A stretch of 64,000 nucleotides of DNA from Eledone cirrhosa (Eukaryota). Positions 3,262 through 64,000 of the stretch are shown here, in pieces (the stretch's first letter is position 1; each line of letters begins with the position of its first letter). The position numbers were made by a program, and so were the translations under genes. The notes beneath the pieces are model-generated. The model worked only from the letters and a program-made list of their open reading frames with translations. It searched no databases and was not told the DNA's origin. Location: assembly GCA_964016885.1 (NCBI GenBank), contig OZ024741.1, positions 132,246,001 to 132,310,000 of the forward strand, written 5' to 3'.

Positions 3262-3493
3262 AACGAAGGAAATGTGGTAAGGAACCAGATGGACCATAAA
3301 GCACCAAAGTACTCAATATTTAGAGTAGTAGAGTGGGTAATAGGAACGAGTAGGACCCCGACGGTGAGCTCAAGCCGTTTCGACGGCTGATTCTGTACTA
3401 AAAAAAAAATAATAATAAAATGATTTTTTTTTTTAGTCCAGAATTAGCCGTCGAAACGGCTTGAGCTCAGCCGTCGTGGTCCTACTCGTTCCT
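3262..3493. mobile_element. Fold-back element of a multi-copy family (also 23353-23541, 38135-38271, 38330-38576, 39621-39801, 41761-41962, 50660-50735, 51130-51305; single arms at 26885-26950 and 54190-54250)
   Basis: Shared aacgaaggaaatgtggtaaggaaccagg..gtactcaatac..gacggctgagctcaagccgtttcgacggc. Contains a hammerhead-like 3' half GAAA-CGGCT TGAGCTC AGCCG-TC. All copies sit in (TA)n. Confidence 0.85.
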
Positions 3494-3571
3494 GTATATA
3501 TATATATATATATATATATATATATATATATATATATATATATATATATATATATATTTATATATATATAT

Positions 3572-3720
3572 TAGAAATATAAGCTTTCACCGTATTTTTG
3601 AGAAATCTGGGGGTTCTAAACCCCACTATCAGGCTAAAAAAATTTCTTTAGTCAAAAATACGGTGAAAGCTTATATTTCTAATTTCAAACTCGCTCAAGT
3701 TTCAAAACACACTTACACAT
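3572..3720. mobile_element. Small fold-back element; same family as 25921-26087
   Basis: Inverted arms tagaaatataagctttcaccgtattttt/aaaaatacggtgaaagcttatatttcta. Confidence 0.7.
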
Positions 3721-3752
3721 ATATATATATATATATATATATATATATATAT

Positions 3753-3946
3753 ATGAAATATAAGAATCAAAGAACTGTTCAAAACATTATTGTGCTTACA
3801 GCTGTTTCCTCCGTGAGGAAACAGCTGTAAGCACAATAATGTTTTGAACAGTTCTTTGATTCTTATATTTCATATAACTGCTCTGTAAATCATCTGATGT
3901 TTTTACATTGAGCTACTTAACTTACTGGTAATAAGCTAGTAATACA
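3753..3946. mobile_element. Fold-back element truncated within a hammerhead (GAAA-C AGCT G-TA)
   Basis: Perfect arms of about 60 bp around cgt at about 3812-3814; the right arm extends further. Confidence 0.8.
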
Positions 3947-4315
3947 TTACTGCCTACCACTATTTAGGGTTTGTATAAAAAATACATTATAACTGCTAAA
4001 GGTTTTTGTGTTTTCATAACCATAAATAGTACAATTAATACTATATATATATATATATATATATATATTTATATACATATGTGTGTATATATATAATACA
4101 TATATATATAAGTATATATATATATATATATACACACACACATATAAATATGTGTGTGTGTGTGTTTAATATTAAGTATAAATCGAAGTTGTAGTCGCAA
4201 TATAGCAGATACCTATACATATGTATATGACTGTACCCAAATGGCTATTTCTTGTTCTATTTCTTATTCTATTTTCCCACGAGGGACTAACGTTCGGAAC
4301 ATTGAACTAACATTG

Positions 4316-4506
4316 CGGTGGATTGGCAGTATCGGTAGAGAGTCGGACACCAAGCTTTGAAGCATAGAGTTACGTCCCTTTATGATCTGAGTTCAAATCC
4401 CGCCGAGGTTAACTTTGCCTTTCATCCTTACGGGGTCGATAAAATAAAGTACCAGTAATGTACTGGTTAAAATGCTGGCCTTGTGCCAAAAATAAAAACA
4501 ATTATT
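4316..4506 (+). mobile_element. SINE family 1
   Basis: Full copy with A/B boxes and core. Confidence 0.88.
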
Positions 4507-4539
4507 TCAATGATATCCAGGTCCTTACTTGATAAAGCC

Positions 4540-4636
4540 TTACATTTTACGCCACCATTCGTGCTAAACGTGAAGAATAATGTCCGTAGAAAATTCCTAG
4601 CCCTCTTAGATTTTCACTTCCCTGTAGGTCATAAAT
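4540..4636 (+). mobile_element. Short internal PLE fragment
   Basis: HFTPPFVLNVKNNVRRKFLALLDFHFPVGHK aligns with [31 protein letters not shown] of the 21149-22186 ORF. Confidence 0.75.
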
Positions 4637-60769: not shown

Positions 60770-61222
60770 AATAATAGTTTCTTATATAGGCACAAGGCCA
60801 GCAATTTTGGTGGAGGGGAGTCGATTAAATCCACCCAGTACGTTACTGGTGCTTTATTTTATCGACCCCGTAAGGACGACAGGCAAAGTTAACCTGAACT
60901 CAGTTAATTTGAACTCAGACCTTAAAGGGGCATAACTCTCTGCTGCAAAGCATGGCGTCCGACCTTCTACCGATACTGTCAATCTACCGCCTTGAAAAGG
61001 TATTATAATATTGATAATGATTTCTGATTTAGGCACAAGACCAACAATTGGGGGTGGGTCATTTGAATCGACCTCAGTGTGTTACTAGAGCTTTATTTAT
61101 AGACCCTGTAAGGACGAAAGGCAAATCTAACCTCGGCGGGATTTGAACTCAGAACGTAAAGGCCCATTACTCTATGCCGCAAAGCAAGTTGTCCGATGGT
61201 CTACCGATAATGCCAATCCACT
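60770..61222 (-). mobile_element. SINE family 1, two tandem copies
   Basis: 60770-60992 and 61015-61222. Confidence 0.82.
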
Positions 61223-61227
61223 GCTAT

Positions 61228-61660
61228 TATAATAATAATTTCTTTATTGGCCACACAGGGCTCACATTAGGAAAACATTAAGGACGGCACAGGACGATGC
61301 AGTGTGGGTTTTTGAATGTAAGTATTTTAACGAAAACAGTGAAAACTGTAAATTCAAAGAAAAACAAAATCCCCAATAACGGAAAACTTCCGAGGGTCAC
61401 TTGTGGAGAAATCCCACAAAAAACTACGTTCACCCTGGCTGCTAGGGCAAGTACCCCCTCCTAGTTATCTTCCCCAATCTATAGGCGCAGACTCAGAACA
61501 GGTCCATTCACTCTGGCTATTCTCATCACTCTCACCGACCTGTCAAGAAATATTTTGAATGGTAGCACTTCCCTCTCCACCCTGATTTTCGTCTCAAGTG
61601 AAACCTGAAAAAGTTAATCAGGGCTTCGCCGAAGCTTTGAAATGGGTCCAGTATATGAGT
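61228..61660 (-). mobile_element. 3' end of a LINE (ORF C-terminus, AATAAA and (TTA)n-type tail)
   Basis: The minus strand reads approximately LINFFRFHLRRK.RVEREVL...RIARVNGPVLSLRL* (one frameshift), then aataaagaaattattattataat. Confidence 0.5.
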
Positions 61661-62340
61661 AATAGATTTAGAACCGAACGTAACCAATGAACAAGTGAGA
61701 ATAGTTAGGGTCTATTCTGGTTCCCAGAGCCAGATCAGTGGCATGCTGATAGATTTCTCCAAAAAAGAAAAGACAGTAGAGTCAAATAAGGAACTCAGTA
61801 AGGCGGAAGAGAGTAAAAGTGCTAGGCTGGATTGTGGTGCTAAGGTTCAGAAACTGTTGAAGGCAGAGAAAGTCATCGTGAAGGATGAAAGTATAAACAG
61901 AAATGAAAAAGAAGCAACAGGGGCCATAGGGGAAGGAGAAGGAATCAAAGAGCTGGAGATTGGTTTATATGGCGTAAATGGGAGAGGAAGTCGGCGTCCA
62001 ATGGCGAGAGAATGACGTCAAGAAATTTAAAAATGAGTTCAGTGGGGTAGCTGTACAGAAAGACAGAATGCATGAAGGAATCGAGGTCACAGAACTGGCC
62101 AAGATTCGGCATCCAGTGTGATGGTCAGTGGCTGAGACTCGAGAAGTTGTTCGTATGGGTCGACAAGGGCCAGTGTTTTGTAGAAGAATGCGCAGTTTCT
62201 TGCGGCGCAAAAACCATTCAGCATCGGCGCGAGTTTGAAACCCACCGCAGGTATATGTGACGGGTATCAATCGTAGACATCTACCGAGAAGGGAACACTT
62301 AGTTTCAGAGAGGTGTAAGACCTGTGGTAGACTAGTAACA
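61660..62340 (-). mobile_element. Degenerate LINE endonuclease-region fragment (CR1/Jockey-like, uncertain)
   Basis: Remnants resembling CGDFN..HAEW and L..TDH in the 61965-62270 translation; higher GC than the flanks. Confidence 0.3.
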
Positions 62341-63095
62341 GTGAGGGAGGGGGTGTATGGAGAATGATGGTAGTCAAAGTGGGGGTGTGAAGTTGGATGT
62401 GGTGTGTGCGGAGATCACTGGATATATTTATGTGTGTATATATAAAGTATAAAAGTGTGCGTGAATAAATATTTTCAAATATATGTTAAACGTGTTGCGT
62501 GTGTGTCCGTATGTGTGCATATATATATGTATACATATGATACTTTACTTAGTTTAATATCTCACATACCACTAATAGGTTGGTGTTCTTAACCGCGGTT
62601 ATTTCGATATATAAACGGAAATAACCTCTGTTTTACAGTTTAATACGCAAAGGAAATTATAGCAGTTTAATTCCTGTCTATAGGAAGTTTACTTTTACTA
62701 CAAATGGTGAAATAACAATAAAAAGGTGATTATGTAAAACCTGAAAAGAAACTGAATACTGGGACATGAATCACATATAGAGGAAATCTGAGTAGCGACT
62801 GTTTCCATCTTATTGCACTTTTTTTAGAAATATATATTTCAACTCTATTTTCATTGGTGATAAGCTTACAGTGTGTGTATATATCTATATATATATATAT
62901 ATGATATAAATATTCCAGTAGGTACTAAGTACCCACGGAAATATATATGGTGTCTATAACAGTGGTTTTTCAATGGTACTAATTTGAGATACCAGAATTA
63001 TAAAAATGAGCGGAACAAGTAAACATTAAACAATCTTTTAAATAAATTAAAATACGATTTAAATATTCACCTGTTTCTATTATATATATTCTAGT

Positions 63096-63175
63096 GCTGT
63101 GACCGACGTTTTCGATTATCAAAGGATTGGAAATTCAGAGAATTTCCAATGGAAAGAATCACCTCTTCAGACAGC
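63096..63175 (-). ncRNA. Hammerhead ribozyme with long stem II
   Basis: GCTGT-CTGAAGA-..ATTGGAAATTC TCT GAATTTCCAAT..-GAAA-ACGTCGG-TC-ACAGC. Confidence 0.7.
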
Positions 63176-63505
63176 TATTTCCATATCACAGGGCACAAAA
63201 GCTTTGTAGTAGTAAATATATTGCTTTCTGCCCAATGCATGAGGTCAAGCCGTTAAAGTGACCTACACATAATTAGGCCGTTAGGAAAAAGCGGGAATTA
63301 TAGACTTGTTGAAATTTCATGTTACTAGAAATTGCAGCACGAGACAACATTTTTTTTCTCTACATAGAAGGAGAATACAAATAAATGATATAAATATTCC
63401 AGTAGGTACTAAGTACCCACGGAAATATATATGGTGTCTCGTGAATTGGGCAGAAAGCAATATATTTACTACTCCAAGGCTTTTGTGCCCTGTGGTATGG
63501 AAATA

Positions 63506-63585
63506 GCTGTCTGAAGAGGTGATTCTTTCCATTCGAAATTCTCTGTATTTCCAATCTTTTGATAAGCGAAACCGTCGGTCACAGC
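63506..63585 (+). ncRNA. Hammerhead ribozyme (inverted partner)
   Basis: GCTGT-CTGAAGA..GAAA-CC GTC GG-TC-ACAGC. Confidence 0.7.
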
Positions 63586-64000
63586 ACTAGAACAGGTGAA
63601 TATTTAAATCGTATTTTAATTTATTTAAAAGAATGTTTAATGTTTACTTGTTTCCGCTCATTTTTATGCATCTGTGTATATAAATGTTACTAGATATAAA
63701 TTCCTTATAATTATCTCCAATTCATTTGTCGAGCAATATTTGGCCATGACTGCTACTATGGTAGTAGGCTGGCCGCTGTCTTATTAACCATTCGCTTTCC
63801 ACTGATTGACCTCGATGTCACGTGATTGATTCTTTTTGAATTTGCCACAGACGAAGAGGCAGTGACTTTATCAATGGCTAGGAATCCAGTCCACGCTTCG
63901 CTATTTCCTTTCCACTGAATTTTTTTAATAAGTTTCCAGAGTCCTCGCTATGCCTGGAGACTTACACGGAAAAAGACTTTCCTGATGACGGAATGATTTT

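Follow-up and report, generated by a model that had tools for sequence, protein, structure and literature searches.

Head-to-head insertions of Penelope-like element ends in TA-rich DNA of Eledone cirrhosa, and how their two arms may have been primed

How does a retroelement come to leave hairpin-shaped insertions in its host genome, with the same end of the element facing outward on both sides? The question is raised by a 64,000-nucleotide stretch of the 3.0-Gb Eledone cirrhosa assembly (G000:C2:132,246,001-132,310,000; hereafter the window), which is AT-rich and packed with (TA)n arrays. A first-pass annotation had listed 17 two-armed insertions there, assigned them to Penelope-like elements (PLEs), and proposed that both ends of a break in (TA)n prime reverse transcription and that the resulting cDNAs are joined in the middle. 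Here we find that the listed insertions are real head-to-head pairs of PLE ends, a layout that was already known, and that they are likely (probability roughly 0.7) to be footprints of twin priming from both sides of a cut (TA)n array. Head-to-head polarity as such is not new; the proposed mechanism, which is probably right, gains its first discriminating support here.

Orientation of the paired arms in the window and in the genome

Inverted pairs were located by self-alignment with simple repeats masked. Inverted repeats were present at all 17 listed coordinates, with arms of 52-374 bp that are 89-100% alike, and a locally shuffled control of 200 kb contained 0 such pairs. As the first-pass annotation had stated, the antisense arm lies left and the sense arm right in 17/17, so that the PLE 3' ends point outward. 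The annotation had read this orientation from hammerhead ribozymes, which proved directly possible for part of the set: a purpose-written descriptor of the type I hammerhead, used to define the RNA sense strand, found a whole canonical hammerhead within an arm at 7/17 (20420, 23884, 25034, 34545, 37899, 40070 and 62901), always on the minus strand in a left arm or on the plus strand in a right arm. The other 10 needed homologues or an open reading frame (ORF): seven were oriented by hammerhead-bearing homologues or a degenerate core (3753, 10443, 14897, 32474, 33232, 33967 and 36134), and three by the ORF of an autonomous element (3262, 23353 and 41761). The earlier orientation of these last three was right, but reading it from the hammerhead was loose: only the 3' half of the motif falls within the arms, and its variant core lies outside. 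Hammerhead sense and ORF sense coincide on the decayed element at 20843-23055, which provides an internal check. Orientation by BLAST to hammerhead flanks was given up as ambiguous where the homologues are themselves palindromic, and direct alignment or ORFs were used instead. An Rfam scan of the window gave 0 matches at the gathering score; hammerhead families were absent among the best 150 of 258 weak matches, those listed being hairpin look-alikes, and the weak matches included many spurious microRNA entries.

Both 3' ends had also been said to face (TA)n. Adjacent TA stands at both outer ends in 14/17 insertions, counting a one-sided tail or tandem continuation, but an adjacent run is missing at 36134 (left), 40070 (left) and 62901 (right). 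Any target-site duplication would be hidden by the TA arrays. The palindromes are asymmetric, a tail of 37-170 nt usually being present on one arm only. Three unlisted pairs, at 38136, 40610 and 48090, share the polarity of the listed ones, and two more, at 50776 and 51130, have the same shape with weaker evidence of orientation.

Beyond the window, we sampled 770 kb of the genome: 77 evenly spaced 10-kb pieces, their coordinates chosen in advance, from 18 contigs. All contiguous hammerhead-bearing pairs were head-to-head (14/14; sign test p = 1.2e-4, although families recur and the pairs are not fully independent). A TA array lies between the arms in both tail-to-tail cases, as expected of neighbouring insertions, and also in one further head-to-head pair. 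Inverted clusters numbered 104, with a median spacer of 29 nt between paired arms; 67 of them abut TA, where ~4.5% of positions would qualify as adjacent, and a one-sided extension of 30-130 nt was present in 43 of these 67. At 87 per Mb, the TA-anchored pairs, only a minority of which were oriented or assigned to PLEs, extrapolate to ~260,000 in 3.0 Gb, or ~3% of bases. The window, with 22 pairs in 64 kb, is about four times denser than the sample.

Two outer ends, clustered inner ends and nestedness of the arms

We compared the ends of the arms in three element families. The arms of family A (3262, 23353, 38136 and 41761) correspond to the pseudo-long terminal repeat (pseudo-LTR) of an intact autonomous element; family B (37899 and 10443) has a canonical hammerhead; and family C (40610 and 48090) comes from an element with a CxxxxCxxC linker, whose C-terminal GIY-YIG frame orients the arms head-to-head. 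For family A we counted 20,512 exact TA junctions at site 1, the tail end, and 14,789 at site 2, which lies 80 nt upstream; at both ends element and target match over 2-3 nt of TA. The spacing of the two sites is 80 nt in family A, ~70 in family B and ~36-40 in family C.

The two sites are paired in a non-random way. Among the first 90 site-1 junctions of family A on contig C1, 63 had a second arm and 27 had no partner, the latter including long copies and copies cut by other insertions. The partner end lay at site 2 in 59 of the 63 (58 seen whole; for the other it was deduced by combining two loci of a single long copy). Of the remaining four copies, one had it at site 1 and three had it elsewhere. 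Sets of 30 copies per family selected at site 2, of which the family-A set overlaps the site-1 set, gave a site-1 partner for 26/30 ends in family A (with 2 partners cut short, one end of a multi-kb copy and one single), 13/30 in family B and 12/30 in family C, the rest in B and C being single, truncated or unresolved. Site-2/site-2 pairs numbered 0 among these 90 site-2 ends. Single-armed copies make up ~30% of family A, and plain inversions without a palindrome occur among the two-armed ones.

Inner ends were scored in 60 two-armed family-A copies, with two ends corrected by eye; three of the 63 were set aside, namely the site-1/site-1 copy and two whose centres were ambiguous because of a hairpin. 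The inner stop fell between -132 and -144 in 45 tail arms and 52 tail-less arms. Position -143 falls on the A of the initiator-like sequence TCATTT (by what we take to be the initiator consensus), and judging from this motif the cluster of inner ends likely marks the RNA 5' end. The cDNAs had been called 5'-truncated; most family-A arms look instead like run-off to a fixed point, not like random truncation. The presumed ribozyme cut lies ~35-45 nt downstream of this cluster, which implies that the template was uncleaved RNA, as it is in vitro (see below). In the first 30 copies the arms seemed to share a fixed end at ...GACTCAA, but this was a product of query bias; in unbiased samples the ends spread from -132 to -144. 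At the tail-arm inner end of L001-L030 we observed one sub-family with ...GACTCAA(T), where the intact element has ...GACTAAAT, and the two arms of L021 and of L023 differ at that GACTCAA(T)/GACTAAAT base.

The centres, by comparison with the ends, are private, with 58 kinds in 63 family-A copies. Among 59 scored junctions, 26 had an overlap of 1-5 nt, 2 a longer one, 13 were blunt and 18 carried inserts, some of which are iterated copies of nearby arm sequence. Repeated short templated inserts resembling products of polymerase theta or of reverse transcriptase slippage were seen at the centres of L010, L013, L022 and L004 and in the window at 40867-41081.

Polarity, to which the first-pass annotation had appealed, is no proof of twin priming, because fold-back of a single cDNA gives the same polarity. 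The relation between the arms is more telling. The tail arm is the longer one on the outside, so fold-back would never allow the tail-less arm to extend further inward. An inward excess of at least 10 nt was seen for the tail-less arm in 12/60 family-A copies and for the tail arm in none (p = 5e-4); with a threshold of 5 nt the counts were 15 and 5. In 7/60 the arms shared no sequence at all. In such non-nested and non-overlapping cases both arms must have been copied from a sense template, which supports two-sided priming joined in the middle. Later deletion would be expected to grow with age and to affect both arms; the non-nested share was the same in young copies (at least 97% like the reference; 5/25) and in older ones (7/35), making later deletion an unlikely cause. 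Non-nested copies occur in families B and C too. At three diagnostic columns the arms of 49 copies disagreed in 5/137 comparisons versus 54% after shuffling, while shared singleton variants numbered 0 against 29 unshared; the arms thus come from one donor and have not been homogenised by conversion.

The same ends recur in independent data. In raw short reads from three other samples under the same species label, aligned to the family-A reference, depth over the 140 nt from the inner stop to site 1 was ~50 to 100 times that of the flanks, and each run held ~2,800-3,200 reads ending next to TA at site 2 and 8,200-11,500 at site 1. Opposite-strand joints from 7752-7757 to 7810 and to 7835-7853 reproduce the non-overlapping form. 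Read joints for near-symmetric centres were few among those listed, perhaps as the library enzyme cuts there. This read support is at the level of the family.

Twin priming and competing explanations

The earlier proposal of two-sided priming fits these data best with a refinement: two different RNA start sites, each fixed and each serving one end, and a minority of plain inversions among the products. In this scheme a double-strand cut by the element endonuclease would open a (TA)n array, and the two exposed target ends would each prime cDNA at one of the two internal sites. Both cDNAs would run toward the RNA 5' end, in family A the pseudo-LTR start ~143 nt upstream of site 1, a distance short enough to yield a flood of 200-bp palindromes. 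Their 3' ends would be united by end-joining, and second-strand fill-in would then produce a palindrome with a tail on one side. We infer one RNA with two enzymes; that a protein dimer holds a single RNA and makes both cDNAs from it has, in our estimate, about even odds. The site-1 enzyme would trail the site-2 enzyme and might sometimes stall, leaving the non-overlapping inversions. More tentatively, and at somewhat less than even odds, twin priming may be programmed, with a dimer on one RNA using two dedicated start sites, one per cut end. If so, the tail would be the gap between two enzymes, and the inverted pseudo-LTR a normal second product.

Several points weigh against this account. That TA was present before insertion is assumed from earlier papers, and the placement of the RNA 5' end at the inner-end cluster is read from a motif. 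Partnerless site-2 ends are common in families B and C (15/30 in B), which limits the rule that site 2 is used only after site 1 to family A. Exceptions exist in the site-1/site-1 copy L151, in the tail-less insertion at 36134, and in L027, whose arms differ in subfamily variants, suggesting that two templates can be used. Agreement between arms may reflect one active donor per cell and not one RNA; one active donor per cell together with an asymmetric dimer would explain the pairing and the one-way stalling too. Iterated inserts at the centres suit snap-back synthesis equally well, and the arms of 48/60 copies are nested or nearly equal; any one of these copies may have arisen by fold-back. 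Finally, the start site used in vitro by the anole element PAc shows no strand difference and does not itself predict the pairing of sites 1 and 2 (PMC11167929).

The most serious alternative is self-priming, in which one strand, either the first cDNA or antisense RNA, folds and copies back on itself, after which the endonuclease would open the hairpin at site 2 for joining to the target. This is the published reading (PMC3846280), with the tail attributed to endonuclease resolution in PMC8557442. It gives the same polarity, suits the short median spacer of 29 nt, accounts for variants common to both arms, and agrees with centres that often fall on small inverted or self-complementary motifs and hold iterated templated inserts. 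Yet it needs the second arm to lie wholly inside the first, and this nesting is broken, in one direction, in the 12 copies described above and replaced by no overlap at all in 7; the non-nested share has no age trend, and such joints occur in raw reads. We therefore regard fold-back as unlikely for the insertions in general, while it may still make some of the nested copies.

Two separate insertions in opposite orientation, side by side or altered by later deletion or conversion, are considerably less probable. TA arrays do gather insertions (37899, 38136 and 38331 stand in a row) and opposite neighbours occur; against this, no TA lies between the arms in 14/14 contiguous pairs, 0 of which are tail-to-tail, the arms share subfamily variants and not singletons, and the pairing of sites is non-random. 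Less probable again is a palindromic mini-element, whether a miniature inverted-repeat transposable element (MITE) or a master copy, amplified as a unit: outer ends and overall size are nearly constant in thousands of copies, but the 58 kinds of centre, the ends made unequal by a fixed tail, the match of the arms to the pseudo-LTR of an intact element with its own reverse transcriptase, and single-armed and multi-kb forms with the same ends all speak against it. An assembly or long-read fold-back artefact is hardly credible, for although some palindromes are perfect (48126: 99.5%, no spacer) and read support is at family level, many arms differ by 3-11%, the ends coincide with element boundaries, and both these ends and the strand switches recur in short reads from three other samples. 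A non-LTR retrozyme was considered and rejected: the pairs are inverted, and in family A the inner ends cluster upstream of the presumed cleavage site and the core is missing from the arms.

Twin priming is familiar from the L1 retrotransposon, where the second priming site lies somewhere internal and the two arms do not duplicate each other. In L1 (Ostertag and Kazazian 2001, as summarised in PMC9148063) the element RNA is the template for cDNAs primed at either end of the cut target, and these meet centrally in a 5' inversion. Just such a structure is found in the 7 non-overlapping copies, and a second arm holding sequence absent from the first, as in L1, is seen in 12/60, the rest not being distinguishable on this point. 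Unlike L1, the second site here has a fixed position near the first; the arms therefore mostly overlap into a palindrome, and more copies are two-armed than not.

For PLEs themselves, an inverted pseudo-LTR at the 5' side, which the first-pass annotation had called established, has indeed been in print since 2013 (Arkhipova 2013; Craig 2021). Head-to-head is the most frequent PLE arrangement, for which self-priming on an antisense template was proposed (Arkhipova 2013, PMC3846280); this is the one explicit model that we found, and a fifth of the scored copies, with their non-nested arms, contradict it. Craig 2021 (PMC8557442) describes an inverted 5'-truncated copy, a one-sided tail and TA targeting, and leaves the formation of tandem and inverted PLE structures unresolved; the present data speak to that question. 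Published insertion units resemble ours in polarity, junction palindrome, one-end tail, (TA)n and, by the descriptor in most families, putative pseudo-LTR hammerheads. They differ in that here mostly the inverted pair only (~200 bp) is present, in very high numbers, and that tails measure 36-170 nt, compared with 30-40 in the known units.

The closest biochemical parallel is PAc, a Poseidon element of the anole, which in vitro cuts and extends both strands, in agreement with two-sided priming, and is predicted to form a dimer (Frangieh 2024, PMC11167929). It shares with the elements studied here AT-rich cutting, two internal start sites and an uncleaved RNA template; in its main text two reverse transcription start sites bound the tail, and inverted arms are not tied in. 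The start site of PAc was the same for both strands, whereas each insertion here has one end of each kind. The pairing rule of sites 1 and 2 would unify the tail, the inverted arm and the two start sites seen in vitro. In the literature that we searched, outside which most subscription papers lie, no paper proposing twin priming for PLEs was found. Nor are such palindromes mentioned in the accessible parts of a 2026 Octopus vulgaris repeat annotation and of a retrozyme preprint.

If twin priming is programmed in this way, a promoter just upstream of the start sites would turn it into a palindrome factory, accounting for the ~260,000 hairpins, or ~3% of bases, extrapolated above. In octopus, an exceptionally high share of loci forming near-perfect double-stranded RNA was reported, with no responsible repeat named in the portion of the paper available (Porath 2017, PMC5625713); PLE hairpins could supply much of it. 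Units of this kind may well be misfiled as MITEs, short interspersed elements (SINEs) or microRNA hairpins.

Element families and remaining features of the window

The intact family-A element consists of tandem 3,531-bp units (L101-L103) with a 717-aa ORF. Read by eye, its protein has YRDD and VIY..YIG motifs with the endonuclease C-terminal; a Pfam search of it returned 0 matches, its best homologue carries PF01541, and the PLE frames of the window gave a weak RVT_1 match plus a GIY-YIG match. Motifs of the Hydra clade are present, namely RW[K/R] (as RWR), DKT and a CxCX5C linker, with no CCHH pair, as are CxxC and CxH around the E and N residues when read against the text of Craig 2021 (PMC8557442). 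By these motifs family A is a Hydra-clade-like PLE; the alternative of a Naiad was dropped, the endonuclease being C-terminal. The likeness to that clade, as Craig 2021 presents it, extends to the C-terminal GIY-YIG-type domain, the linker motifs and insertion into (TA)n, while the unit of 3.5 kb is not under 3 kb and the ribozyme core is U3-A8, not canonical.

Upstream of the arms family A has a hammerhead-like fold with the core UUGAGAA, a U3-A8 variant, of which the arms hold only the 3' half. U3-A8 covariation is known for PLE hammerheads (Cervera and de la Pena 2014). On free folding of the region the hammerhead fold was not the predicted minimum (z -0.5). At L101:7706-7806 the stem II loop of this fold is long and contains the presumed start site, so that the ribozyme could form only in read-through transcripts. 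Some relatives (L147 and L216) have C3/A8 in the core. The purpose-written descriptor found a canonical hammerhead in most families, and none was seen in family C.

Family-A pairs span 3263..3494 (A/T-rich filler at the centre), 23354..23539 and 41762..41961, each with an 80-nt tail on the left, and the unlisted 38136..38270, joined at the stem III hairpin. Family B is represented at 37899..38101 (hammerhead in both arms, 72-nt tail left), with a family B-like pair at 10444..10642 (67-nt tail right). Of the unlisted family-C pairs, 40610..41425 has a Neptune-like linker, no hammerhead seen, a tail on the left and a head-to-head orientation read from the ORF of its homologues, and 48090..48515 is a perfect palindrome of 195-bp arms with no spacer and a tail on the left. 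A relative of family C at 36579-37760 has long inverted arms and (CA)n runs in its 3' untranslated part.

Among the other two-armed insertions, 3755..4041 pairs a short antisense left arm with a sense right arm extended by ~170 nt to TA, and its homologue L300 has a whole hammerhead. Both arms hold a hammerhead at 20420..20791 (66-nt tail left), 25035..25905 (374-bp arms, 98.9% alike, tail right), 34546..35131 (37-nt tail left), 40071..40372 (no tail) and 62903..63667 (antisense part in tandem, no TA run at the right). At 32475..33082 a minus-strand hammerhead lies in the spacer, continuous with the left arm; 33232..33910 is older (90% alike), with a degenerate hammerhead core in both arms; and the exceptional 36132..36411 has a tail on neither side and no TA run at the left. 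The unlisted TA-flanked palindromes are 50776..51074, with a one-sided tail and an orientation from a half motif only, and 51130..51306, which by eye resembles a diverged relative of family A.

Tandem or partial-tandem pseudo-LTRs occur in the L101-L103 units and as sense copies at 14897, 23884 and 33967. Each of the latter has an antisense left arm followed by tandem sense copies: 14898..15913 (plus-strand hammerhead at 15672), 23885..24684 (hammerheads at 24147 on the minus and 24538 on the plus strand) and 33968..34482 (plus-strand hammerhead at 34314). At L060:8436-10000 one antisense arm precedes at least four tandem 311-bp sense units with a whole hammerhead in each, a retrozyme-like array with an inverted head.

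Longer PLE remains include a 5'-truncated minus-strand copy at 8236..10208, with a reverse transcriptase and GIY-YIG frame (8699-10219) and TA arrays on both sides; a decayed minus-strand copy at 20843..23055, with ORF pieces at 21149-23133 and a hammerhead at 20952-20981 on the same strand; and a 3' fragment at 55219-56262, whose GIY-YIG frame lies at 55608-56108 and which ends in a 65-bp perfect hairpin. At 42335-42896 an inverted pair of a tandem-forming family of ~480 bp has a TA array in its middle; no hammerhead or ORF was seen in this pair, which stays unoriented, and a tail-to-tail reading of 42335/42667 was dropped because the fixed ends of its family point outward.

The window also holds a nearly complete long interspersed element of the apurinic/apyrimidinic endonuclease (APE) type on the minus strand at 43020-46186, with Exo_endo_phos and RVT_1 in three frames. 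Dispersed SINE-like copies in both orientations at 4322-6763 form long-spaced inverted pairs unrelated to the TA-anchored ones. A TA array of ~550 bp occupies 16476-17023, and a 21-bp tandem repeat at 28145-28849 gives rise to long open frames.

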